In this document: piece by piece, positions 16,635 to 29,070 of the stretch
Numbering within the stretch: the stretch's first letter is position 1
Layout of the letters: each line of letters starts with the position of its first letter
Source: an uncultured Solirubrobacterales bacterium
Lineage (GTDB): Bacteria > Actinomycetota > Thermoleophilia > Solirubrobacterales > Solirubrobacteraceae
Direction of reading: 5' to 3'
NCBI GenBank assembly: GCA_963770805.1
Contig: CAVYQU010000011.1
Location: 574,221 to 638,220, forward strand
Length of the DNA stretch: 64,000 nt
Program-made: the position numbers and the translations under genes
The notes under the pieces: generated by a model
The model's database searches: none
Seen by the model: only the letters and a program-made list of their open reading frames with translations
What the model was told of the DNA's origin: nothing

Positions 16635-16872
16635 GCTTCATAAAGTATAGTGCCCCCGGCGTTTCGGTGCGTCGCCGGCCCTCGCCTCCCGGCGCCCACC
16701 GCCGGGGGGGGACCCGAGGCCCGCCTCCTCCGGGCCCTTGTTAGCACTCTGCCAACAGATTGCTACGATCCGCCCAGGCCCACGGGCGGCATGCCGCTGG
16801 CCGCACGGGCCACGCTGGCGGCCTCGCCCGGCCTGCGGGCGAGGTGTATCCCCATTTCTGAGGAGCGCGAGC

Positions 16873-18090
16873 ATGAGCAACAGCGAAGCACTGATATTCG
16901 ATGCGATTCGTACGCCCAGGGGCAAGGGCAAGGTCAACGGTTCGCTCCACACGGTCAAGCCCGTCGATCTGGTCGTCGGGCTGATGCACGAGATGCTCGT
17001 GCGCAACGAGTCGCTTGACCCCCAGAAGGTCGACGACGTCGTCCTCGGCTGCGTCTCCCCGGTCGGTGACCAGGGCGCGGACATCGCCAAGACGGCCGCG
17101 ATCAAGGCCGGCCTGCCCGACACCGTCGCCGGCGTCCAGCTCAACCGTTTCTGCGCTTCCGGCCTCGAGGCCGTGAACATCGCCGCCCAGAAGGTCGCCT
17201 CCGGCTGGGAGGACCTTGTCCTTGCCGGCGGTGTCGAGTCCATGTCCCGCGTCCCGATGGGCTCCGACGGCGGCGCCTGGGCGATGGACCCCGAGACCAA
17301 CTACGACACCTCCTTCATCCCGCAGGGCATCAGCGCCGACCTGATCGCCACCGTCGAGGAGTTCAGCCGCGAGGACGTCGACGCCTACGCCGCGCAGTCA
17401 CAGTCACGTGCGGCGGCTGCTCAGGAGCAGGGTCGCTTCAGCAGTTCGGTGATTCCAGTGCTCGACATCAACGAGAACGTCGTCCTCGATCAAGACGAGT
17501 TCATCCGCCCCGGCACGACGGTCGAGACGCTGTCCGGCCTCAAGCCCTCCTTCCAGGTGATGGGCGAGATGGGCGGCTTCGACGCCGTCGCACTCCAGAA
17601 GTACCACTGGGTCGAGAAGATCAACCACGTGCACACGCCCGGCAACTCGAGCGGCATCGTCGACGGTGCCTCGCTGATGCTGATCGGCAACGAGCACACC
17701 GGCAGCGAGCTCGGCCTCGCGGCCCGCGGCCGCGTCCTCGCCACGGCGGTGTCCGGCGCAGATCCCACGATCATGCTCACCGGCCCGGCGCCGGCCAGCC
17801 GCAAGGCACTGGCCAAGGCCGGCCTCACCGTCGATGACCTCGACCTCGTCGAGATCAACGAGGCCTTCGCCGCGGTCGTGCTGCGCTTCGTGAAGGACAT
17901 GGGCCTCTCGATGGACAAGGTCAATGTCAACGGCGGCGCGATCGCCATGGGCCATCCCCTCGGCGCCACCGGAGCGATGATCCTTGGGACGCTGATCGAC
18001 GAACTGCACCGCACTGGTGGCAGGTACGGCCTCGCGACGCTTTGCGTCGGCGGCGGCATGGGCATCGCGACTGTCGTGGAGGCGATCTGA
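16873..18090 (+). CDS. fadA: Acetyl-CoA C-acyltransferase (thiolase, FadA-like)
   Basis: [48 protein letters not shown]. Confidence 0.93.
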
Positions 18091-18092
18091 GC

Positions 18093-20309
18093 ATGGCTGA
18101 CACCCCCAACACGATTCGCTGGGAGGAGGACGAGGACGGCATCGTCGTCCTCACCCTGGACGATCCCAGCCAGTCCGCGAACACCATGAACGCGGCCTAT
18201 AAGGCTTCGATGGCGGCCGCCGTGGATCGCCTCGAGGCCGAGAACGACGAGATCACCGGCGTCGTCATCACCTCGGGCAAGAAGACCTTCTTCGCCGGGG
18301 GTGACCTCAACGATCTGCGGCTGGCCACCAAGGAGCACGCCGCTCAGATCAGCGAGGAGATCCGGGACATCAAGCGCCAGCTGCGCCGGCTCGAGCAGCT
18401 CGGCAAGCCGGTCGCTGCCGCCATCAACGGCGCGGCGCTCGGCGGCGGCCTCGAGATCTGCCTGGCCTGCCATCACCGCGTCGCGCTCGACAGCCCCAAG
18501 GTCCAACTCGGCTTCCCCGAGGTCCAGCTCGGACTGCTCCCCGGGGCCGGCGGCGTCGTGCGTACGGTGCGGATGCTCGGCATCGTCGACGCGCTCATGC
18601 AGTTGCTGCTGCAGGGCCAGCGTCTGCGGCCTGACAAAGCCAAGGAGCTCGGCATCGTCGACGAGGTGGTCGCCACTCCGGAGGAGCTTGTCCCCGCCGC
18701 CAAGGCTTGGATCAAATCCAACCCCGAGGCCGTCCAGCCCTGGGACGTCAAGGGCTACAAGATCCCCGGCGGCGTGCCGTCGAACCCGAAGCTGGCGCAG
18801 AACCTGCCCGCGTTCCCGGCCAACCTGCGCAAGCAGCTGAAGGGCGCCAACTACCCTGCCCCGCACCACATCATGGCCGCGGCGGTCGAGGGGGCCCAGG
18901 TCGACTTCGACAACGCGATCGAGATCGAGGGCCGGTACTTCGTGGACCTGGTCACCGGACAGGTGTCCAAGAACATGATCCAGGCGTTCTTCTTCGACAT
19001 GCAGCGGGTCAGCGGCGATCGTGGCCGGCCCGAGGGCATCGAGCCGTTCCAGCCCAAGAAGATGGTCGTTCTCGGCGCCGGCATGATGGGCGCAGCGATC
19101 GCCTACGTGTGCGCCAAGGCGGGCATCGAGGTCGTGCTCAAGGACGTCTCGTTGGAGGCGGCCCAGCGCGGCAAGACCTACTCGGAGAAGCTGCTCGAGA
19201 AGGCCATCAGCCGTGGCCGCTCCACCCAGGAGAAGGCCGACGCGCTGCTGGCGCTGATCAAGCCGAGCGTCGACCCGGCCGACGCCGCCGGCGCCGAGCT
19301 GGTGATCGAGGCGGTGTTCGAGGACCCGAACGTCAAGGCTCAGGTGTTCGGCGAGATCGAGCCGCACCTGGCGCCCGATGCGCTGCTGGGCTCGAACACC
19401 TCGACGCTGCCGATCACCGGGCTGTCGGAGCACGTGAGCCGCCCGGCGGACTTCATCGGCCTGCACTTCTTCAGCCCGGTGGACAAGATGCCGCTGCTGG
19501 AGATCATCAAGGGCGAGAAGACCTCCGACGAGACGCTGTATCGCGCGCTCGACGTGGCCAAGCTGATCAAGAAGACGCCGATCGTCGTCAATGACAGCCG
19601 CGGCTTCTTCACCAGCCGCGTGATCGGCACGTTCATCAACGAGGGCATCGCCATGCTCGTCGAGGGCGTTCCCGCTCCCACGATCGAACAGGCGTCCTCG
19701 CAGGCGGGGTATCCAGCGCCGGTACTGCAGCTCTCCGACGAGCTGAACCTCAAGCTCATGCGCAAGATCCGCAACGCGGCCAAGGAGGCCGCCGACTCCG
19801 CTTCGAGCGGCTGGGACGGCCACCCGTCCGAGCAGGTGATCGATCGCATGCTCGACGAGTTCGACCGGCCGGGCAAGCTCGAGGGGCGTGGCTTCTACGA
19901 GTACGCAGACGGCAAGCGCGTCGGGCTGTGGACGGGTCTGCGTGACGCCTTCCCGCCCGTCGATGATCCGTCGCAGATCTCGCTGCCGGACCTCGAGGAG
20001 CGGATGCTGTTCGCCGAGGCGATCGAGTCCGTCAAGTGCCTCGACGAGGGCGTGATCGAGTCCTCCGCTGACGCCAACATCGGCTCGATCCTGGGAATCG
20101 GCTTCCCGGGCTGGACCGGTGGCGTACTGCAGTACATCAACGGCTACCAGCACCCCGAGCACGGTGGCGGCCCGTCTGCGTTTGCCGCCCGCGCCCGCGA
20201 GCTGGCCGACCGCTACGGCGAGCGCTTCGACCCGCCCGCGTCGCTGGTCGAGAAGGCCGAGCGCGGCGAGACGTACTCCGACGAGGCGCCTGTCGCCGCC
20301 GTCGCCTGA
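18093..20309 (+). CDS. fadB: Fatty-acid beta-oxidation multifunctional subunit (enoyl-CoA hydratase/3-hydroxyacyl-CoA dehydrogenase)
   Basis: ALGGGLEI, GFPEVQLGLLPGAGG, LGAGMMG, EAVFED, SNTSTL, GLHFFSPV. Confidence 0.93.
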   Translation: MADTPNTIRWEEDEDGIVVLTLDDPSQSANTMNAAYKASMAAAVDRLEAENDEITGVVITSGKKTFFAGGDLNDLRLATKEHAAQISEEIRDIKRQLRRLEQLGKPVAAAINGAALGGGLEICLACHHRVALDSPKVQLGFPEVQLGLLPGAGGVVRTVRMLGIVDALMQLLLQGQRLRPDKAKELGIVDEVVATPEELVPAAKAWIKSNPEAVQPWDVKGYKIPGGVPSNPKLAQNLPAFPANLRKQLKGANYPAPHHIMAAAVEGAQVDFDNAIEIEGRYFVDLVTGQVSKNMIQAFFFDMQRVSGDRGRPEGIEPFQPKKMVVLGAGMMGAAIAYVCAKAGIEVVLKDVSLEAAQRGKTYSEKLLEKAISRGRSTQEKADALLALIKPSVDPADAAGAELVIEAVFEDPNVKAQVFGEIEPHLAPDALLGSNTSTLPITGLSEHVSRPADFIGLHFFSPVDKMPLLEIIKGEKTSDETLYRALDVAKLIKKTPIVVNDSRGFFTSRVIGTFINEGIAMLVEGVPAPTIEQASSQAGYPAPVLQLSDELNLKLMRKIRNAAKEAADSASSGWDGHPSEQVIDRMLDEFDRPGKLEGRGFYEYADGKRVGLWTGLRDAFPPVDDPSQISLPDLEERMLFAEAIESVKCLDEGVIESSADANIGSILGIGFPGWTGGVLQYINGYQHPEHGGGPSAFAARARELADRYGERFDPPASLVEKAERGETYSDEAPVAAVA

Positions 20310-20324: not shown

Positions 20325-20990
20325 GTGACCAATCCCTCTGAGGCCCGCGAGGTACTCGACGAGCAGCGACACGACGTGGCTGCGGCCGCGCGGAAACTGG
20401 CTGGCGGGGGGCTGGTGCCGGGGACATCGGGCAACATCTCGGTCCGGGCCGGGGAGCTGGTGGCGATCTCCGCCGCCGGCTCAGCGCTGGACGGGCTCGA
20501 GCCCGATCAGGTCACCGTTGTCGACCTCGATGGCCGAGTGCGCGAGGGCGCCGGGGCGCCGAGCTCGGAGCTCGCCTTGCACCTCGGCATCTACCGCCGC
20601 TTCTCGTCCGGAGCGGTGGTGCATTGCCATCCCCCGTACGCCACGGCGGTGGCGTGCGTGCTCGATGAGCTTCCGGTCGTCCACTACACGCAGGTTCGGC
20701 TCGGCGGAGCGATCCGTGTCGCTCCGTATGCCAGGTTCGGCTCAGACGAGCTCGCCGCCCTCACCGTCGATGCGCTCGTCGACCGCGACGCGGCGCTGAT
20801 GGCCAACCACGGAGCGGTCACCCACGGTGAGGACCTCGACGCGGGCGTGGAGTCCGCGTACCTGCTCGAGTGGCTGTGCGCGCTGCACTGGCGCGCGGTG
20901 GCGCTGGGCACCCCGCGAAATCTCGACCCCGACCAGCAGGCCCAGCTGACCCAGCGGTTCCGAGGCCCGGCCTCGAGCGCCCACAGGTAG
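20325..20990 (+). CDS. Class II aldolase/adducin family protein
   Basis: GTSGNISVR, PSSELALHL, VHCH, LMANHG metal-binding motifs. Confidence 0.88.
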   Translation: MTNPSEAREVLDEQRHDVAAAARKLAGGGLVPGTSGNISVRAGELVAISAAGSALDGLEPDQVTVVDLDGRVREGAGAPSSELALHLGIYRRFSSGAVVHCHPPYATAVACVLDELPVVHYTQVRLGGAIRVAPYARFGSDELAALTVDALVDRDAALMANHGAVTHGEDLDAGVESAYLLEWLCALHWRAVALGTPRNLDPDQQAQLTQRFRGPASSAHR

Positions 20991-21032
20991 CGTTCACCCC
21001 GCTCGCCCCCGACTCCGAGGAGACCCCGCCCG

Positions 21033-22634
21033 ATGCCAACCGTCCGTGAAGCGACCTTCGAGCTGTTCCGCGCCCACGGGATGACCACGATCTTCGGGAA
21101 TCCCGGCTCCACCGAGTTGCCGATGCTGGCCGACTTCCCCGAGGACTTCAACTACGTCCTCGGCCTTCAGGAGTTAGTGGTGATGGGCATGGCCGACGGC
21201 TTTGCCCAGGCCAGCGGTCACCCCACCCACGTCAACCTCCACACCGCGCCCGGGGTCGGCAATGCAGTCGGGGGCATCTCCAACGCCCAGGCGAACAAGT
21301 CTCCGCTCGTCATCACCGCGGGGCAGCAGGTCCGGGCGCAGGTGACCATGGAGGCCAACCTCACCAACCGTGACGCGACCTACGGCCCGCAGCCCTACGT
21401 CAAATGGAGCCACGAGCCACCCCGGGCCCAGGATGTGCCCGCGGCGATCGCCCGGGCCATTCATCACGCCACGCTGCCGCCCAACGGCCCGGCGTTCGTC
21501 TCCATCCCGATGGACGACTGGAACGCCGAGGCCGACGAGGACCGGACGCTGCAAGCCACCCGCCGGCAGACCAACGGACGCAGCGTCCCCGACCCCTCAG
21601 AGCTCTCGCAGCTCGCCTCGCTGCTGCGCTCTGCCCGTCACCCCGTGATGGTGGCCGGCCCCGACATCGACGCCTCCGGCGGCTGGCCCGACGCGATCAC
21701 GCTCGCTGAGAAGCAGCGCCTCCCGGTGTGGGCGACCCCGGCGCCCGGCGGCGGGCGGATCGGGTTCCCGGAGAACCACCCCAATTTCATCGGCGTGCTG
21801 CCGCCGGCCATCGCTGCCGTCTCGGAGACGCTTGAGGGACACGACCTGATCCTTGTGGTCGGCTCCTCGGTGTTCCCCTACTACCCCTACATTCCCGGGG
21901 CCCTCCTGCCGGCCGGAGCCTCGCTGATCCAGATCACCAGCGACCCCAACGAGGCCGCTCGCGCGCCGATGGGCGACGCGATCGTCGGCGACGTCGCCCT
22001 CGCCCTGAAGGAACTCGCCGCGATGGTCGGCGAGTCCGAGCGCCACGCGCCCCACCCGCGCCCCGCGCCCGAGGAGCCGGCCGCCACCGAACCGATCAGC
22101 GGCTCGCAGGCGATGGCAGCGCTGGCCGACGCCTGGCCCGCTGACGGCGTCGCGGTGGTCGAGACCCCCTCGAGTACGTTGGCGCTTCGCAACCGGCTCC
22201 GGCTCTCGCGGCCCGGCAGCTACTTCTTCGGCGCCAGCGGCGGCCTCGGCTTCGGGATCTCCGCGGCGGTGGGAGTGCAGCTCGCCCAGCCCGAGCGTCC
22301 CGTCGTCTGCATCCTCGGCGAGGGCTCGGCGCAGTACGGGATCACCGCGCTGTGGAGTGCGGTCACCTACAAGGTCCCGGTCACCTTCCTCGTGCTCCGC
22401 AACGAGGAGTACATGATCCTCAAGTGGTTCTCGATGCTCGAGAACGTCACCGGGGCACCAGGGCTCGAGCTGCCGGGTCTCGACGTCGCCGCGATCGCCC
22501 GGGGCTACGGCATGACGGCGCGCGACGTCGACGGCCGCGACGAGCTCACCGCGGCGCTGCGCGATGACATCCCCGTCGACGACGGCCCACGGCTGATTCA
22601 GGCCCGGGTGTCCTCGGGAATGTGGCTGGACTAG
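21033..22634 (+). CDS. mdlC: ThDP-dependent 2-keto-acid decarboxylase, benzoylformate decarboxylase-like
   Basis: FGNPGSTELP, NLHTAPG, EAARAPMGDAI, GEGSAQY..N ThDP motif. Confidence 0.88.
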   Translation: MPTVREATFELFRAHGMTTIFGNPGSTELPMLADFPEDFNYVLGLQELVVMGMADGFAQASGHPTHVNLHTAPGVGNAVGGISNAQANKSPLVITAGQQVRAQVTMEANLTNRDATYGPQPYVKWSHEPPRAQDVPAAIARAIHHATLPPNGPAFVSIPMDDWNAEADEDRTLQATRRQTNGRSVPDPSELSQLASLLRSARHPVMVAGPDIDASGGWPDAITLAEKQRLPVWATPAPGGGRIGFPENHPNFIGVLPPAIAAVSETLEGHDLILVVGSSVFPYYPYIPGALLPAGASLIQITSDPNEAARAPMGDAIVGDVALALKELAAMVGESERHAPHPRPAPEEPAATEPISGSQAMAALADAWPADGVAVVETPSSTLALRNRLRLSRPGSYFFGASGGLGFGISAAVGVQLAQPERPVVCILGEGSAQYGITALWSAVTYKVPVTFLVLRNEEYMILKWFSMLENVTGAPGLELPGLDVAAIARGYGMTARDVDGRDELTAALRDDIPVDDGPRLIQARVSSGMWLD

Positions 22635-22648
22635 GAACGGGAACCCCG

Positions 22649-25450
22649 ATGCGCCTGATCACACCCGATGTCAGCCGCCTCGCCCCGGCTGAGCCTCAGC
22701 CGAGCGACGACCGGGCCCCCGACTGGGTGGCTGGAGGCACCCCCGAGCCGCTGCTCGAGGATCTGACCGCTGCGCTCGGCGCCGACCGCGTGCTCTCGCG
22801 CGCCCTCGACCTCGTCAGCTACGCCTCCGACGCCAGCCCCTACCGGCTGATCCCCCAGGCCGTCGTCATGCCCCGCGACGTGGGCGACCTGGTCAAGCTG
22901 CTGGCCGCGGCCCGGGCCGGCGGTACGCCGCTGGTGTTCCGCGCCGGGGGCACCTCGCTGAACGGCCAGTCGCAGACGGACTCGATCCTCGTCGACGTCC
23001 GCCGCCACTGGCAGCGCGCTCGGATCGAGGACGGCGGGGCCCGCGTGCGTGTCCAGCCCGGCATGGTGCTCGGGCACGTGAACCGGATGCTCGCGCGCCA
23101 TGGGCGCAAGCTCGGCCCCGATCCGGCCAGCACCGACATCGCCTGCGTCGGCGGGGTGATCGCCAACAACTCGGGCGGGATGCGCTGCGGCGTGTGGGCC
23201 GACTCCTACCGGACGGTGCGCTCGATGACGCTCGTGTTGGCTACGGGCGCCGTGATCGACACCGCCGCGGCGGACGCCGAGGCCAGGTTCGCGGCGGCGG
23301 CGCCGAAGCTGGCCGCCGGCCTCGAGGCGCTGCGCGACGAGCTCCGCGGCGACGCGGCCCTGGCCGAACGGGTCGCGCGCAAGTTCGAGATCAAGAACAC
23401 GACCGGCTACCGCCTGTGCGCGCTGCTCGACGCCGACACGCCACTGGAGATCTTCCGCCGGCTCGTCGTCGGCTCCGAGGGCACGCTCGCCTTCGTGGCC
23501 GAGGCCGTGTTCGAGACCGTGCCGCTCGGGCGCCACCCCTCGGTCTCCCTCGTCCTGTTCGAGAACATCGACGCCGCCGCGGCAGCCGTGCCCGAGCTCG
23601 TGCAGGCTGGGGCCACGGCCACCGAGCTGATGGTCGCCCCGACGTTGATCGCCGCGGCATTCAACATGCCCGGCACGCCGGAGCGCTGGAAGACGCTACC
23701 GCCCGAGTCGGCCGCGCTGCTGGTGGAGTTCCGGGCCGAGGACCCGGCCGAGCTCGATGATCCCGAACGTGCCGCGCTGAGGATCCTCGAGGGTCGGCCG
23801 CTCCTCGATCCTCCCAGCTTCTCGCGCAAGCCCGAGCAGATCGAGATGCTGTGGCGCGTGCGCGAGGGGATGCAGGGACTGCTGGCGGCGCTGCGCCCGC
23901 CCGGCGTCTCGCTGATCATCGAGGACGTCTGCGTGCCGCCCGAGCGGGTGGCCGAGGCGGTCAAGGACCTCCAGGCGCTGCTGGGCAAGCACGGCTTCTT
24001 GCAGGGGCTGGCCGGTCACGCCTCGGCCGGCAACCTCCACTTCCTGCTCACCCCAAACTTCGGCGAGCCGGCCGACCTCGAACGCTACGACGCCTTCATG
24101 CACGAGCTTGTCGAGCTGATCGTCGATCAGTACGACGGCTCGCTGAAGGCCGAGCACGGCACCGGTACCAACATGGCGCCGTTCGTCGAGCGCGAGTGGG
24201 GGAGCAAGGCGACCGAGATGATGTGGCGCATCAAGGCGCTGGCCGATCCCGACGGGATCCTCGCTCCCGGAGTGGTGCTCAACCGCGACCCAGGCGTGCA
24301 CCTGCGACATCTCAAGTCGACGCCCGAGATCGAGGAGGCGGTCACCAAGTGCATCGAGTGCGGCTTCTGCGAGCCGGTCTGCCCGTCGCGCAACACCACG
24401 ACGACGCCGCGCCAGCGCATCGCGCTGCGGCGCGAGATGGCCCGCCAGCCCGCGGGCTCGACGGTGCTCGAGACGCTGCTCGCGCAGTACCAGCACGATG
24501 GAATCGACACCTGCGCCGCCGACGGCTCGTGCCGGCACGCCTGCCCGGTGGGCATCGACACCGGCACGCTGATCAAGCAGTTCCGCCAGCGCGAGCACGG
24601 CGCACGCGCCGAGCGGCTCGGCGCCACCGTGGCCCGCCACGCCGGACTGGCCGAGCGAGCCGCCTGGGCCGGCGCCCACCTGCCGCTGCGTCCCGGCCTG
24701 CCGAAGGCGGCCCCGGCCGAGCTCCCGTTCACCGTCCGCGAGGGGGCCGCCGCGGTGTACATGCCGGCCTGCATCAATCGCATCTTCGGTGGCGACCGCG
24801 GCACTCAGGCTCCGACCGTGCCCGAGGCGCTGGTGGCGATCTCCCGCCGGGCGGGGCTGCCGGTCTGGATCCCACCGGACGTGCGGGGTCAGTGCTGCGG
24901 GACGCCATGGAGCTCGAAGGGCTTCGCCAGCGGTCATCGCCTCGTGGCGCAGCAGGCCGCCGCGGCGCTGCGGCGCTGGAGCGGGGATGGGGCGCTCCCG
25001 GTGGTCATCGACGCGAGCTCGTGCACCCACGGCCTCATCTCCGAGGTGGTGCCCGAGGGCGTTCGGATCATGGACTCGATCGAGTGGGTTCACGACCATC
25101 TGCTCGAGCGGCTCTCGCTGCGGCGCCGGGTGGACCGCGCCGTCGTGCACCAGACCTGCTCCGTGCGTCACCTGGGGCTGTCGGCGAAACTTGTGGCCAT
25201 CGCCGAGGCGATCGCCGAGGACGTGACCGTGCCCGCATCGACCGGCTGTTGCGGGATGGCTGGTGATCGCGGCTGGCTTCACCCTGAGCTGCCGGCCTCG
25301 GCGCTGCGGGACTTGGCGCACGAGCTCGGCGGCCAGCGCTTCGACGCCTGCCTCTCGAGCAACCGCACCTGTGAGGTTGCGCTTGGCGAAGTGACCGGGC
25401 ACCCGTTTGCTTCGATGGTCCAGAAGGTGGAAGAATTGACGCGGGAATGA
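22649..25450 (+). CDS. FAD-binding + 4Fe-4S (GlcD/GlcF-like fusion) 2-hydroxyacid dehydrogenase family
   Basis: YASDASPY, FRAGGTSLNGQ, GSEGTLAF, KAEHGTG, CIECGFCEPVCP, CAADGSC..ACP, CCG motifs. Confidence 0.88.
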   Translation: MRLITPDVSRLAPAEPQPSDDRAPDWVAGGTPEPLLEDLTAALGADRVLSRALDLVSYASDASPYRLIPQAVVMPRDVGDLVKLLAAARAGGTPLVFRAGGTSLNGQSQTDSILVDVRRHWQRARIEDGGARVRVQPGMVLGHVNRMLARHGRKLGPDPASTDIACVGGVIANNSGGMRCGVWADSYRTVRSMTLVLATGAVIDTAAADAEARFAAAAPKLAAGLEALRDELRGDAALAERVARKFEIKNTTGYRLCALLDADTPLEIFRRLVVGSEGTLAFVAEAVFETVPLGRHPSVSLVLFENIDAAAAAVPELVQAGATATELMVAPTLIAAAFNMPGTPERWKTLPPESAALLVEFRAEDPAELDDPERAALRILEGRPLLDPPSFSRKPEQIEMLWRVREGMQGLLAALRPPGVSLIIEDVCVPPERVAEAVKDLQALLGKHGFLQGLAGHASAGNLHFLLTPNFGEPADLERYDAFMHELVELIVDQYDGSLKAEHGTGTNMAPFVEREWGSKATEMMWRIKALADPDGILAPGVVLNRDPGVHLRHLKSTPEIEEAVTKCIECGFCEPVCPSRNTTTTPRQRIALRREMARQPAGSTVLETLLAQYQHDGIDTCAADGSCRHACPVGIDTGTLIKQFRQREHGARAERLGATVARHAGLAERAAWAGAHLPLRPGLPKAAPAELPFTVREGAAAVYMPACINRIFGGDRGTQAPTVPEALVAISRRAGLPVWIPPDVRGQCCGTPWSSKGFASGHRLVAQQAAAALRRWSGDGALPVVIDASSCTHGLISEVVPEGVRIMDSIEWVHDHLLERLSLRRRVDRAVVHQTCSVRHLGLSAKLVAIAEAIAEDVTVPASTGCCGMAGDRGWLHPELPASALRDLAHELGGQRFDACLSSNRTCEVALGEVTGHPFASMVQKVEELTRE

Positions 25451-25704
25451 GAACACGCGCCGGTTGGGGGGCAGGAGCAGCGCCTGAGCGGCCCCTCGCC
25501 GGCCTCTGCGACCGCTGCGCCCACCAGCAGCTGGTCCCGACGACCCGCGGCTCGGTGTTCTCGCTGTGCCGCCGCTCGCGCGACGAGCCCGAGCGTTTCC
25601 CGCGCTACCCGCGGCTGCCCGTGCTCCGCTGCCCGGGCTTCGAGCCCCGGCCCGAGGCCTTCGAGCCCCGGCCCGAGGGCTTCGAGCCCCGGTCAGACGG
25701 CTGA
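25447..25704 (+). CDS. Small Cys-rich hypothetical protein
   Basis: GLCDRCAH..FSLCRRS..FPRYPRLPV..C; start overlaps the upstream stop. Confidence 0.6.
   Translation: MRTRAGWGAGAAPERPLAGLCDRCAHQQLVPTTRGSVFSLCRRSRDEPERFPRYPRLPVLRCPGFEPRPEAFEPRPEGFEPRSDG
25636..25692 (+). repeat. 21-bp tandem repeat (~2.7 copies)
   Basis: G(G/C)CTTCGAGCCCCGGCCCGAG units encoding (G/A)FEPRPE. Confidence 0.9.
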
Positions 25705-25705
25705 G

Positions 25706-26671
25706 CTACTGCGGCGGCTGCGGGTCGAGGACGATCAGGTTGCTGCCGTCCTGAGCCTGGACCAGATGCTCGGCGAACAGCCCGCGCGAGGTGATCTGTG
25801 CCACCAGGCTGGCCTCGGGGGTCTGCTTCCACACGCTCAGCTGGGGCACGGTGGGCGGGAACTGCTCCGGGAAGGTGCTACTGAGCGGCTGGGAGAGCCA
25901 CGGCTTCAGCTCGTCGTGGACGAACAGCAGCGCCAGGTTGACCGGCTTGCTGGCCACCTTCGCGTGCGGCTTGGGGCAGATCCCGCTGCAGCCCTGCATC
26001 GTGTGTCCGGGGGGTAGGATGGCCACGACGTTCTGCACCCCGCCGATGTACTTGAACGTGTACAGGGCGAGCTCCAGGGCCTCGCGGCGCAGCAGCAGAA
26101 GGCGGTCGGGGCTCGGGGTCCCGGTGCCGATCGCGCAGTTGGTCGTGCCGATCCCACACAGGTTGTAGGCGATCGTGTTGCCACTGAGCAGCGAGACCGA
26201 GCTCGTGGAGGGATCGGTGCGCACCGCGACCTGGAGCCCGCCGCCGCTCGAGGACGACGAGGATGTTGTCCCGGACGACGCCGCCGCGCTCGTGGCCGCG
26301 TTGTTGTTGACGTTGACCAGCGTGACGATGTCGAGCTGATCGACCCCGGAGATGCGGTAGAGCGGCGCGAGGTGGTCGGCGATCTCCCGCGCCCCGAGCG
26401 TCCCGCCGTCCGTGGGCGACCAGCTCGACCACTTGGCGCCGACGCCACTGGAACGCCCGGCGGCGAGCGCCGCGACGGCGATGACGACCGCCGCGACGGC
26501 GATCCCCACGAGCGCGCCGGTAACCACGTGGAACTTGTGCGCGTGCGGGGAGCTCTCAGGACGCGCGGAGTGCTCGGACGCGCGGACCGCCGGTGCGCGG
26601 ATACCCGCCTTGGCCGCATGCTCCTCGCTGGCCTTCACGATCTGACGCTCACCGTTCATACGTTCGGCCAC
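25706..26671 (-). CDS. Hypothetical single-pass membrane protein
   Basis: N-terminal TM VVTGALVGIAVAAVVIAVAAL, Ser linker, Cys-containing outer domain; overlaps the upstream protease stop. Confidence 0.7.
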   Translation of the reverse strand: MAERMNGERQIVKASEEHAAKAGIRAPAVRASEHSARPESSPHAHKFHVVTGALVGIAVAAVVIAVAALAAGRSSGVGAKWSSWSPTDGGTLGAREIADHLAPLYRISGVDQLDIVTLVNVNNNAATSAAASSGTTSSSSSSGGGLQVAVRTDPSTSSVSLLSGNTIAYNLCGIGTTNCAIGTGTPSPDRLLLLRREALELALYTFKYIGGVQNVVAILPPGHTMQGCSGICPKPHAKVASKPVNLALLFVHDELKPWLSQPLSSTFPEQFPPTVPQLSVWKQTPEASLVAQITSRGLFAEHLVQAQDGSNLIVLDPQPPQ

Positions 26672-29070
26672 GTGCGGTCATCCATCAGGTCGATGTCGGG
26701 CCGTTGCAGCCCAACGCCGGCGAGCAGGTCGGTCACCTCGTCGCCGTGCAGCTCCTTGCGGTCGATCAGGCTCTCGGCGATTTGCTGCACCCCGGCCTGG
26801 TTCTCGGACATGAGCGCGTACGCGGTCACATAGGCCTGGCCGAGGATCTGCGCTGCGGCGCGCCGCTTGGTCGCGTCGCCGAGGACGGCCGCCACCGGGT
26901 CTTGAACCATCGGGCCGCCGCCGGCCCGGTTCATGATCGTGGAGCCGATCCGCTCGAGGCGCTTCAGCACATGCTCGAGGTCCTCGGTCGGCTGGGCGCT
27001 TCCGCCGATGTGCACAGGGTCGGCGCCCATGCCCCACATCCCGACCATCGCGGCCGCGGTGGCCGTGGCGCTCTGGACGTCGCCGCTGACGCCCTGCGAG
27101 TTCTCGCCGTAGAAGACGTGCTCAGCCGCCATCGCGCCGAGGATCATGATCAGGCTGCCCATCACCCGGCTGCGGAAGTGCGAGAAGCGCTCGTCCTTCT
27201 CCATCCCTTGGTAGTGGCCCAGCGAGCTGCCGCGCTTGCGGATCGACAGCCGTGTGGAGAGGATGTCCTCGCCCAGGTACACGTGGCCGGCGGCGGCGTG
27301 CCCGGCCTCGTGGATCGCCACGGCGCGCGTCTCATCGGGCACGTACTCGATGTTCTGGGCCGTGCCCGCCTCGACCGTGGTCATCGCCTCGACGATGTCC
27401 GGCCAGCCGAACACGCGCCGGCCCTCAGCGTGGGCGATGGTCAGCGCCATCGAGCAGCACTGCTCGATCATCGAGGGGGAGTAGCCGTTGGTGATCCGGG
27501 CCAACTCGTCCCGGCGATGATCGGTGTCGAGGTCGGGCTCGTGGTCGACCTTCTCCAGGTAGAGATCGAAGATGTCCTTGCGGTCGTCCTTGGTCGGCGT
27601 GCGGAACCAGATGTGGCGGCCCATCCGTCCCGGGCGGGTGAGCGCCGGATCGAGCACCTGGATCGGGACGTTGCACGCCCCAATGAAATAGATCTGCTCG
27701 CTGCGGGGCGGGGGCGTCGGCAGCCGCAGCGACAGCTTGCCGATTCGCCGCGGGACGATGAAGATCGCGTCGAGGAAGGTGTTCAAGCGATTGGTCATGA
27801 ACTTCCGCACCACGGGTGGTTCGTCGATGCCGTCCATCACCACCAGCAGCTGATTGAGGGCTTGGCCGCTGTAGCCCATGCCGCCCATGCCGGGGAGGTA
27901 GCGCTCGAGCCGCCCCCGGACCGCCTGGGCGAAGGTCCCGTAGCCCGAGGGCAGCGGTTGCTCGCGTTGGGCGAACAGCTGCTCGCGCCAGGCTCGGCTC
28001 TCGATCACCAGATCGCCGGTAGGAGTGAGCGAGCCGTTTGGGCCGTAGAAGTTGAAGTCGTGGATCGTGGCCGGCATCGCGCCCCTCATGCCACCGGCCT
28101 CGCCCTGCAGCGCCTGCCGCCGCATCCCCACCGCGTCGATCTCGTCGATGAAGACGATGCACTGGCCGCCCCACTTGCGAGCCAGCTTGCGGGCCTTGTG
28201 GGCCATGTACTGGACGACGAGCGCGTCCATTCCGATGAACATCTGGGCGAACCCCGAGCCCGGAATGGTCACGAACGGGCAGTTGAAGCCGGTGGCGATG
28301 GCCTTTGAGATCATCGTCTTGCCCGTGCCGGGGGCTCCCAAGAACAGCAGGCCGCGCTCCCGCTTGCCGCCGGCCTGCTCGAACTCCTCGCCCGACTGCC
28401 ACAACGTGATCACGCGGGTGATCTCCTGCTTGGCCTCGGCCTGCCCGCGCACATCGTCGATCTTCACGCCCCAGCTGGCATCGCCGGGCTCGTAGCTGCG
28501 GATCCCGCGGACGGCCATGAACAGGAACGGTCCGAACAGGATGAAGACATTGATGAACAGCAGCAGCGGCAGCTGGATGAACACCAGCGCCAGCTGCGGC
28601 AGGGTGTCCGGGGGGAAAATCTCTCGCAGGCCCTCGAACGGGTGGAAGAACGGCGCACTGACGCCAGCGAAGGCGAACAGCAACTGACACAGGCACAGCA
28701 GCAGGAAGATGATCCCGATCAGGACCGGCAACCGGCGGAACTTGGTCCGCCAATACCAGTAGCGCCGCCGGCCGACCAGGTCGTCCTCCTTGAGGCTCGC
28801 GTTGGCCCCGTACAGGCTCGGCCACGGGATCAGCTTCCGAACGATCACCTCGACCAATCCGCGGAAGCCGATCACGGCGATGAAGGTGATGATCAGCGAC
28901 CACCAAAAACTGAGGCGGTTGCTCTCGTAGAGGACGAGGAAGAAGGCGGGCGCGGTGAGCAGCGCCACGGCCGTGGCAGCGCGAGTCAGGCGCCGCCACT
29001 CATAGGCGAGAGCGGACGCGTGCTCGTTGATGGGTCCCCTCATCCGCGGGCTCTGCTCAGCGTAGGCCAT
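26656..29070 (-). CDS. Divergent FtsH-like membrane AAA+ ATPase / M41 metalloprotease
   Basis: N-terminal TMs, GAPGTGKT, IVFIDEIDA, LDPALTRPGR, HEAGH, VSGD. Confidence 0.85.
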   Translation of the reverse strand: MAYAEQSPRMRGPINEHASALAYEWRRLTRAATAVALLTAPAFFLVLYESNRLSFWWSLIITFIAVIGFRGLVEVIVRKLIPWPSLYGANASLKEDDLVGRRRYWYWRTKFRRLPVLIGIIFLLLCLCQLLFAFAGVSAPFFHPFEGLREIFPPDTLPQLALVFIQLPLLLFINVFILFGPFLFMAVRGIRSYEPGDASWGVKIDDVRGQAEAKQEITRVITLWQSGEEFEQAGGKRERGLLFLGAPGTGKTMISKAIATGFNCPFVTIPGSGFAQMFIGMDALVVQYMAHKARKLARKWGGQCIVFIDEIDAVGMRRQALQGEAGGMRGAMPATIHDFNFYGPNGSLTPTGDLVIESRAWREQLFAQREQPLPSGYGTFAQAVRGRLERYLPGMGGMGYSGQALNQLLVVMDGIDEPPVVRKFMTNRLNTFLDAIFIVPRRIGKLSLRLPTPPPRSEQIYFIGACNVPIQVLDPALTRPGRMGRHIWFRTPTKDDRKDIFDLYLEKVDHEPDLDTDHRRDELARITNGYSPSMIEQCCSMALTIAHAEGRRVFGWPDIVEAMTTVEAGTAQNIEYVPDETRAVAIHEAGHAAAGHVYLGEDILSTRLSIRKRGSSLGHYQGMEKDERFSHFRSRVMGSLIMILGAMAAEHVFYGENSQGVSGDVQSATATAAAMVGMWGMGADPVHIGGSAQPTEDLEHVLKRLERIGSTIMNRAGGGPMVQDPVAAVLGDATKRRAAAQILGQAYVTAYALMSENQAGVQQIAESLIDRKELHGDEVTDLLAGVGLQRPDIDLMDDRTWPNV

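Follow-up and report, generated by a model that had tools for sequence, protein, structure and literature searches.

The closest described counterpart of the system reported here is the MdlB-MdlC part of the mandelate pathway of Pseudomonas putida, in which a 2-hydroxy acid is oxidized to a 2-oxo acid and the latter is decarboxylated by benzoylformate decarboxylase (BFD; MdlC) to an aldehyde and CO2. The same two-step logic operates in Acetobacter pasteurianus, in which lactate is converted to pyruvate and pyruvate to acetaldehyde. Here we describe a gene pair that could follow this logic with other enzymes. It lies at positions 21033-25450 of a 64,000-nucleotide stretch of DNA from an uncultured Solirubrobacterales bacterium (contig CAVYQU010000011.1 of assembly GCA_963770805.1; the whole stretch is called the window below) and encodes a predicted thiamine diphosphate (ThDP)-dependent decarboxylase of the BFD family, followed by a predicted flavin adenine dinucleotide (FAD)/4Fe-4S D-2-hydroxyacid dehydrogenase of 942 amino acids.

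We consider it somewhat more probable than not (roughly 0.55) that this pair converts a non-aromatic D-2-hydroxy acid to the corresponding 2-oxo acid and then to an aldehyde and CO2. The two genes, whose open reading frames (ORFs) overlap by 13 nt, appear to be translationally coupled and would form the functional core of the locus. In the first step, the 942-amino-acid enzyme would oxidize a D-(R)-2-hydroxy acid to the 2-oxo acid, with the electrons leaving through its 4Fe-4S/CCG module, probably to quinone. In the second, the ThDP enzyme would decarboxylate the 2-oxo acid non-oxidatively to an aldehyde one carbon shorter. Compared with the mandelate steps, the window dehydrogenase is predicted to be of the FAD/Fe-S, D-specific type, whereas MdlB is a flavin mononucleotide (FMN)-dependent, L-specific enzyme, so that the stereochemistry would be opposite; compared with the Acetobacter route, the decarboxylase belongs to the BFD rather than the pyruvate decarboxylase family. 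The strongest argument that the pair acts as a module is that decarboxylases of this class have been paired with flavoenzymes of the GlcD superfamily twice, independently.

Active-site residues of the decarboxylase

The window decarboxylase scored 669.6 bits against the NCBIfam model PRK07092, "benzoylformate decarboxylase" (cut-off 493), and aligned over its full length to wild-type P. putida BFD (PDB 1bfd) with an E-value of 1.4e-151 and approximately 50% identity in HMMER. The two proteins share family, fold and the three ThDP-enzyme domains, and non-oxidative decarboxylation of a 2-oxo acid is the activity to be expected of both. Residues were called from HMMER alignments to the PDB chains of P. 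putida BFD and are given in P. putida numbering. An earlier reading of the locus, made from the sequence alone (the sequence-only reading), had picked out three altered motifs by eye, and all of them reappeared in these alignments: FRYHQY is replaced by FPYYPY (His281 to Tyr, with Arg279 and Gln282 also changed to Pro), YGALRWF by YMILKWF (Ala460 to Ile, with Gly459 changed to Met) and EALLTN by EANLTN (Leu109 to Asn). Ser26 and His70, which it had considered conserved, are indeed kept, and both are invariant in the 96 decarboxylase orthologues from the order that were used for residue counts. Glu28, Glu47 (kept in 96/96), Leu110, Phe397 and Phe464 are retained as well. Two further differences had been missed, the change of Thr377 to Pro and an altered metal motif.

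The ThDP/Mg motif GDG...NN reads GEG...RN in the window protein (Asp428 to Glu; window residues 429-431), with Asn455 kept. The GEG form occurs in 95 of the 96 orthologues. Of 72 aligned family sequences (the window protein and 71 representatives), 10 have it, and it is a clade-wide variant of a motif that is usually held to be invariant. With GEG counted as a conservative variant, the ThDP machinery is that of the BFD family. The substrate-facing features of the characterized enzyme are not shared. The position of the catalytic His281 is occupied by Tyr in 96/96 orthologues, and in the aryl pocket Ile460, Pro377 and Asn109 stand in place of Ala460, Thr377 and Leu109. Pro282, Pro377, Ile460, Leu461 and Phe464 are, like Tyr281, invariant (96/96), and Asn109 is found in 86 of the 96. 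The mdlA, mdlB and mdlD context is also lacking: the window contains no match to FMN_dh (PF01070) or MR_MLE_C (PF13378), which agrees with the earlier statement that it holds no MdlB-type FMN dehydrogenase or mandelate racemase, and the matches to these families in the genome sit on other contigs or approximately 190 kb away. With the query set used, no mandelate-pathway neighbors were found in 95 related loci either. Broadly speaking a BFD-family member, the decarboxylase lacks both the defining residues (His281, Ala460, Thr377 and Leu109) and the context of the characterized enzyme, and it should therefore not be annotated as a benzoylformate decarboxylase.

Among the P. putida chains, the best match to the window protein was not a wild-type chain but 4mpp, which differs from the others by Tyr281, Pro377, Thr397 and Ile460. 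The natural decarboxylase has three of these four residues (Tyr281, Pro377 and Ile460) and keeps Phe397. The A460I substitution is reported to let P. putida BFD use pyruvate and to shift it toward aliphatic keto acids (PMC9063327). In comparison with the A460I and 4mpp variants, the window decarboxylase additionally has Asn109 and Met459, and its residues are natural and clade-wide rather than laboratory changes.

To sample the wider family, 1.84 billion cluster representatives were searched exhaustively with HMMER, and 71 full-length family representatives were compared. Three residue classes were distinguished: the classical class with His281-Gln282, Thr377, Phe397 and Gly459-Ala460; a large class with Tyr281-Pro282, Pro377 and Ile460, which includes the window protein; and a class with Thr279-His281, Pro377-Arg380 and Ala460. 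In a midpoint-rooted tree of 64 of these sequences (a single FastTree run), the window protein falls in a well-supported clade separate from that of MdlC. Its sister is a clade with a Streptomyces protein in it (support 0.946); these two clades jointly form the sister group of the classical one (0.887), and all three are nested among further Tyr/Pro/Ile members (0.993). The Tyr/Pro/Ile state is therefore likely to be the older one and the His/Ala state of P. putida derived, an order tied to the rooting and to a single tree method. The term "H281Y/A460I-type substitutions" used by the sequence-only reading thus probably reverses the direction of change, since Tyr/Pro/Ile is fixed in a multi-phylum branch within which His/Ala is nested.

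Members of the Tyr/Pro/Ile class were found in Actinomycetota, Armatimonadota, Alphaproteobacteria and Acidobacteriota. Among the orthologues from the order, the pocket residues vary with the surroundings: the variant with Asn109, Thr380, Phe397 and Met459 goes with the dehydrogenase and oxidase context described below, and orthologues with Leu109, Ala380 and Gln397 lack these partners. Other members of the class adjoin genes for a D-isomer 2-hydroxyacid dehydrogenase, a malate:quinone oxidoreductase, an aldo/keto reductase or an epoxide hydrolase.

The dehydrogenase and the conservation of the pair

The dehydrogenase combines, in one chain, a GlcD-like FAD part (residues ~40-555) with a GlcF/GlpC-like 4Fe-4S and CCG module (~560-940), its Pfam domains lying at residues 78-214, 307-551, 574-645 and 722-803. 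This is the fused architecture of FAD/Fe-S D-2-hydroxyacid dehydrogenases. The GlpC and GlcF models of NCBIfam gave partial matches spanning residues 562-939, and the GlcD match was also partial. Against the YdiJ model the score was 196.9 bits (cut-off 1350), with only the N-terminal half aligning, and the PDB matches of that half were chains of glycolate oxidase, LctD, D-lactate dehydrogenase and D-2-hydroxyglutarate dehydrogenase. The same architecture of GlcD-type FAD domain, 4Fe-4S dicluster and CCG domains is shared with the Fe-S D-lactate dehydrogenase of P. putida KT2440, with YdiJ of Escherichia coli (a D-2-hydroxyglutarate dehydrogenase) and with the glycolate oxidase GlcDEF. The first of these is reportedly the subject of a 2017 paper by Jiang et al. 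The window enzyme falls into the single-chain length class of ~940-1020 amino acids; its likeness to the P. putida enzyme is one of domain architecture, and the two differ in context, the window gene being coupled to a ThDP decarboxylase gene and not to genes for a lactate permease and an L-lactate dehydrogenase.

Homologues of the fused dehydrogenase were present in 17 of 301 sampled genomes, its own included, with 38-54% identity in other actinobacterial families. Among the distant homologues, one lies behind a lactate permease gene and a second next to genes for a MurQ-like etherase and for an RpiR regulator, both at approximately 40% identity; a third adjoins a gene for a GntR-FCD regulator. 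These neighborhoods would fit D-lactate oxidation.

To place the pair among its relatives, we compared 80 species-level loci and 15 loci from the genome set, with genes called by tblastn and by ORFs filtered on third-codon-position GC content; all counts come from one order, and the relatives are not independent. The dehydrogenase gene lies directly downstream of the decarboxylase gene in 46 of the 67 loci with enough flanking sequence, including loci from other genera and families of the order. The aldolase gene that precedes the pair in the window is within 6 kb upstream of the decarboxylase gene in 29/67 loci, abuts it in only two of the 67, and occurs together with the dehydrogenase gene in 17/60. 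The conserved unit is the decarboxylase-dehydrogenase pair and not three genes; the linkage of aldolase, decarboxylase and dehydrogenase on which the sequence-only reading had staked its route is not conserved as such. That reading had proposed that the locus leads from a hydroxy acid through a keto acid to an aldehyde and does not serve the classical mandelate pathway. The proposal is supported for the pair, given the coupling in the order and the recurrence in Streptomyces described below; a role of the aldolase in the route is not supported.

Upstream of the decarboxylase gene, 45 of 75 loci carry a gene for an amine oxidase (PF01593) within approximately 2 kb. The commonest full arrangement, tightly packed on one strand, is aldolase - (PfkB kinase) - amine oxidase - (amidase) - decarboxylase - dehydrogenase - (837-amino-acid protein) - small Cys-rich ORF, with the genes in parentheses variably present. 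The best PDB matches of the amine oxidase are monoamine, cyclohexylamine and putrescine oxidases (1.7e-103 to ~1e-63). An L-amino-acid oxidase, which would supply the 2-oxo acid directly, was considered and rejected, such chains matching only partially. The amidase-signature enzyme (NCBIfam PRK06061, 703.6 bits) is encoded in 12 loci; it stands between amine oxidase and decarboxylase in L032, L033, L041, L042, L047, L062, L068, L076 and L086. Eight of the 11 amidase-containing loci with enough downstream sequence lack the dehydrogenase, and amidase and dehydrogenase may supply the decarboxylase in place of each other. In two relatives, genes of the Mce/MlaD lipid-uptake type occupy the usual position of the oxidase, directly upstream of the decarboxylase gene (L015:8010-9473 and L016:11106-14280). 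A protein of ~780-840 amino acids without a Pfam or NCBIfam match is encoded between the dehydrogenase and the small Cys-rich ORF in approximately 15 loci (for example L016:4013-6526, minus strand) and is absent from the window.

The second pairing was found through the Streptomyces representative of the sister clade (P0004), which led to 80 further loci. In approximately 55 of them, the decarboxylase gene is followed by a gene for a separate GlcD-like FAD oxidase of ~490 amino acids that shares only 25-29% identity with the N-terminal half of the window dehydrogenase and is not orthologous to it. The hosts are Streptomyces, Kitasatospora, Nonomuraea, Actinomadura, Rhizohabitans, Actinorhabdospora and Salininema. 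Genes for a cytochrome P450, an alpha/beta hydrolase and a PF03098 protein come next, in varying order; the last of these is homologous over its full length to the fatty-acid alpha-dioxygenase of plants (4kvj, 5e-110; 4hhr, 1e-100). One example of the five-gene cluster is L128:8001-15744 from Streptomyces sp. NBC_00158, with approximately 55 further loci among L112-L183. The products of alpha-dioxygenases are (R)-2-hydroperoxy fatty acids, which yield a one-carbon-shorter aldehyde and the (R)-2-hydroxy acid, and actinobacterial homologues have been noted but not characterized (PMC8720084). If a D-specific flavoenzyme and then a 2-oxo-acid decarboxylase acted on that (R)-2-hydroxy acid, the same aldehyde would result. 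The Streptomyces-type cluster looks like an uncharacterized bacterial alpha-oxidation or oxylipin cluster. The window itself does not have this cluster type, and no PF03098 alpha-dioxygenase was found in the Solirubrobacterales loci. Our literature search, the coverage of which was incomplete, returned nothing relevant on the window pairing, on the Streptomyces cluster or on a 2-oxo fatty acid decarboxylase.

Gene run, aldolase and flanking genes

The three genes that the sequence-only reading had delimited are intact and co-directional, with coordinates that an ORF check reproduced exactly (Table 1). Their codon-position GC content is that of real genes in this 70% GC genome, and the GC content of the window as a whole is likewise approximately 70%. 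They extend a same-strand run that begins with fadA and fadB, a point absent from the sequence-only reading, and only 15 nt separate the end of fadB from the aldolase ORF. A simple promoter and terminator scan, otherwise uninformative, gave no terminator-like site on the plus strand between 16400 and 26000. From this layout we infer that the run is one operon. Alignments of fadA orthologues start only at residue 39-42, and the true start probably lies approximately 40 codons downstream of the ORF start. A fadAB pair upstream of the cluster was seen in only 5 of the 67 loci.

Table 1. Genes of the run and of its downstream flank, with positions in the window
Feature	Positions	Strand	Matches and remarks
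fadA-type thiolase	16738-18090	+	Thiolase_N 3.5e-53, Thiolase_C 1.1e-45; opens the co-directional run
fadB-type enoyl-CoA hydratase / 3-hydroxyacyl-CoA dehydrogenase	18042-20309	+	ECH_1, 3HCDH_N, 3HCDH
Class II dihydroxyacetone phosphate (DHAP)-type aldolase (FucA/DrdA/ribulose-1-phosphate-aldolase-like), intact	20325-20990	+	Aldolase_II 1.6e-46
BFD-family ThDP-dependent 2-oxo-acid decarboxylase (predicted)	21033-22634	+	TPP_enzyme_N/M/C; NCBIfam PRK07092
942-amino-acid FAD/4Fe-4S/CCG D-2-hydroxyacid dehydrogenase (predicted)	22622-25450	+	FAD_binding_4, FAD-oxidase_C, Fer4_8, CCG
Small Cys-rich ORF, 85 amino acids, CxxC...C...C	25447-25704	+	Overlaps the dehydrogenase stop by 4 nt (ATGA)
321-amino-acid protein	25706-26671	-	Without family match; overlaps the FtsH-like gene
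FtsH-like AAA/M41 protease	26656-29070	-	Divergent FtsH-like member

The aldolase appears to be an intact, DHAP-dependent class II enzyme. It carries the Aldolase_II domain with the motifs HCH and NHG, SSE and GNIS, which, by analogy with FucA residues, we take to be the Zn ligands (HxH/NHG), the catalytic Glu (SSE) and the phosphate site (GNxS), respectively. It scores below every equivalog cut-off, the best NCBIfam match being ribulose-1-phosphate aldolase (191 bits; cut-off 300), with FucA at 141.3 bits (cut-off 264). FucA-type aldolases are among its PDB matches, the best of which is 6btd (1.1e-37), presumably the 5-deoxyribulose-1-phosphate aldolase DrdA. The fold and the Zn-ligand and phosphate-site motifs are common to FucA, DrdA and the haloarchaeal ribulose-1-phosphate aldolase; the partner kinase in relatives of the window is, by comparison, of the PfkB type, and no isomerase is present. 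With a dN/dS of 0.2-0.3 against its closest orthologues, compared with 0.08-0.12 for its neighbors, the aldolase is under purifying selection that is weaker than theirs. The idea of a decaying relic is not supported, the ORF and motifs being intact at this dN/dS.

In relatives, the aldolase gene appears to belong to an upstream block of aldolase, PfkB kinase and monoamine oxidase (MAO)-like amine oxidase within the same operon, and it stands beside the decarboxylase gene in the window because this genome has apparently lost the kinase and the oxidase that lay between them. Amine oxidases encoded elsewhere in the genome are only paralogous, at most 49% identical. Of the two closest relatives, L029 (decarboxylase 90% identical) has the order fadA-fadB-aldolase-amine oxidase-decarboxylase-dehydrogenase, and L028 (89%) has lost the amine oxidase, as has the window. 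Since the window is more distant from L028 and from L029 than these two are from one another, the two losses look independent.

Downstream, the small Cys-rich ORF has no Pfam or NCBIfam match, and its C-terminus in the window carries short Pro/Glu-rich repeats. Its residues 16-62 are conserved behind the cluster in most relatives, even where the dehydrogenase is missing. The ORF may be part of the cluster or may go with the genes for the 321-amino-acid protein and the FtsH-like protease, a conserved backbone pair that faces the cluster in nearly all relatives.

Substrate and alternative explanations

The pocket (Tyr281, Pro377, Met459-Ile460 and Asn109) makes it probable that the substrate of the decarboxylase is non-aromatic, and together with the position in the tree and the absent mandelate genes it argues that the substrate is probably not benzoylformate. 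For the window clade, a short D-lactate/pyruvate-like or hydroxylated substrate is slightly favored, on account of the additional polar and bulky clade residues Asn109 and Met459. The relatives of the dehydrogenase and the residue match to 4mpp point to short acids, that is, to a conversion of D-lactate to pyruvate and acetaldehyde. The main alternative is a medium- or long-chain 2-hydroxy fatty acid, with CoA-independent alpha-oxidation feeding FadAB; the alpha-dioxygenase of the sister clade, the fadAB genes upstream in the window and the Mce-type genes in two relatives point in this direction.

Several observations weigh against the proposed route or blur its substrate. The evidence on chain length conflicts, with the dehydrogenase homologues indicating D-lactate and the sister clade, fadAB and the Mce neighbors indicating fatty acids, and no biochemically characterized member of the clade was found in the literature. 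Saturation mutagenesis has reportedly shown Tyr or Phe at position 281 of P. putida BFD to be compatible with benzoylformate decarboxylation; if so, the pocket argument fails to exclude aromatic substrates. The two residues that hold the phenyl ring by packing in BFD, Phe397 and Phe464, are also retained. No aldehyde dehydrogenase is encoded in the gene run. In 21 of the 67 relatives the dehydrogenase gene is not beside that of the decarboxylase, and since most amidase loci are without it (8/11), the decarboxylase is not strictly dependent on the dehydrogenase. Outside the order, no BFD homologue was found next to the fused dehydrogenase. Finally, PF03098 has no match in the window's own genome (96% complete), which is weak evidence of absence given that 14 control genomes were equally without a match.

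The alternative that survives best, although we regard it as unlikely, is a variant of the aromatic, mandelate-type route, in which an FAD/Fe-S D-mandelate-type dehydrogenase would give benzoylformate or a substituted aryl-glyoxylate and the BFD homologue would give benzaldehyde, with a benzylamine-type amine oxidase and a mandelamide-type amidase of relatives converging on the same aldehyde. The score above the BFD equivalog cut-off, the identity of approximately one half to P. putida BFD and the retention of Ser26, His70, Phe397 and Phe464 speak for it, as do the MAO/cyclohexylamine-oxidase type of the relatives' oxidase and their amidase-signature enzyme. In P. putida, an amidase-signature mandelamide hydrolase gene adjoins mdlC. 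However, His281, Ala460, Thr377 and Leu109 are all replaced, by residues that are invariant or nearly so, and the decarboxylase groups with the alpha-dioxygenase-linked Streptomyces clade and not with the classical one. No racemase, FMN dehydrogenase or benzaldehyde dehydrogenase gene is nearby, and the dehydrogenase homologues occur in lactate-type contexts.

It is also possible, but rather improbable, that the three genes share no pathway and merely occupy a variable insertion spot between backbone genes, with ABC exporters and fadAB on one side and the genes for the small Cys-rich protein, the 321-amino-acid protein and the FtsH-like protease on the other. The aldolase, and perhaps the other two enzymes as well, would then serve unrelated processes. 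Gene content between these backbone genes varies widely among the 80 relatives, the aldolase rarely abuts the decarboxylase and evolves faster than its neighbors, and the decarboxylase gene stands alone in several loci. On the other hand, decarboxylase and dehydrogenase genes are adjacent too often, and too tightly (as overlapping or nearly abutting ORFs), for chance; moreover, the pairing recurs with a non-orthologous oxidase in another order, and the pocket signature tracks the context.

A bolder extension of the fatty-acid alternative is at long odds in our estimate. It holds that the Tyr281-Pro282/Pro377/Ile460 class and D-2-hydroxyacid flavoenzymes together carry out CoA-independent alpha-oxidation of fatty acids, and that the Solirubrobacterales operon serves N-(2-hydroxyacyl) amino-diols (ceramide- or sphingoid-like compounds). 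The amidase would free the 2-hydroxy acid and the amino-diol, the MAO/cyclohexylamine-oxidase-like enzyme would turn the 2-amino-1,3-diol into a 1,3-dihydroxy-2-ketone, and the PfkB kinase would phosphorylate C1, after which the class II aldolase would yield DHAP and a fatty aldehyde. Both aldehydes would then enter beta-oxidation via FadAB, and the window would represent a reduced version with the hydroxy-acid branch and the aldolase only.

We consider it very unlikely that the ThDP enzyme acts mainly as a carboligase or lyase, joining aldehydes, such as those formed by the amine oxidase, to 2-hydroxy-ketones or splitting the latter, which in relatives would be phosphorylated by PfkB and cleaved by the class II aldolase to DHAP and an aldehyde. 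Enzymes of the BFD family perform carboligation well, and formaldehyde is converted to glycolaldehyde by engineered BFD variants. The tight same-strand run of aldolase, PfkB, amine oxidase, decarboxylase and dehydrogenase in relatives is consistent with such a role, and the aldolase stays with the pair in several loci that have lost the oxidase (the window, L028, L054 and L069). This explanation, however, gives nothing to do to the 2-hydroxy-acid dehydrogenase, which is the partner conserved best; nor is a comparable natural pathway known, and the kinase and the oxidase are absent from the window locus. A C2/C3 organosulfonate route (sulfolactate to sulfopyruvate to sulfoacetaldehyde, with a taurine-type amine oxidase, an N-acyl-taurine amidase and a sulfo-ketose kinase and aldolase feeding the same pool in relatives) is not supported and can be given very little weight, for although the set of enzyme types maps formally onto sulfoquinovose, sulfolactate and taurine steps and the pocket has the polar Asn109, the genome has no sulfoacetaldehyde acetyltransferase (Xsc) above the cut-off (best 337.7 against 676.4 bits), neither a sulfite exporter gene nor a sulfonate transporter gene was seen nearby, and the known sulfopyruvate decarboxylases are of a different ThDP family.

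In summary, the pairing of a BFD-family decarboxylase with a predicted D-2-hydroxyacid dehydrogenase is well supported by genome comparison and appears to carry the known MdlB-MdlC-like logic in another enzyme combination. Thousands of genes are automatically annotated as benzoylformate decarboxylase, and the equivalog model accepts the window protein even though one catalytic His and three pocket residues are changed. Our results indicate that a large, multi-phylum branch of the BFD family has fixed a different pocket and has repeatedly been coupled to flavoenzymes predicted to oxidize D-2-hydroxy acids. If these decarboxylases do act on aliphatic substrates, a systematic mis-annotation would be corrected and a natural "aliphatic BFD" would gain a physiological role, which would be of interest for biocatalysis (aldehyde and acyloin synthesis), and enzymes of bacterial CoA-independent alpha-oxidation might be identified. 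The locus is chiefly of value as a pointer to what a large, mis-annotated class of enzymes does in the cell.

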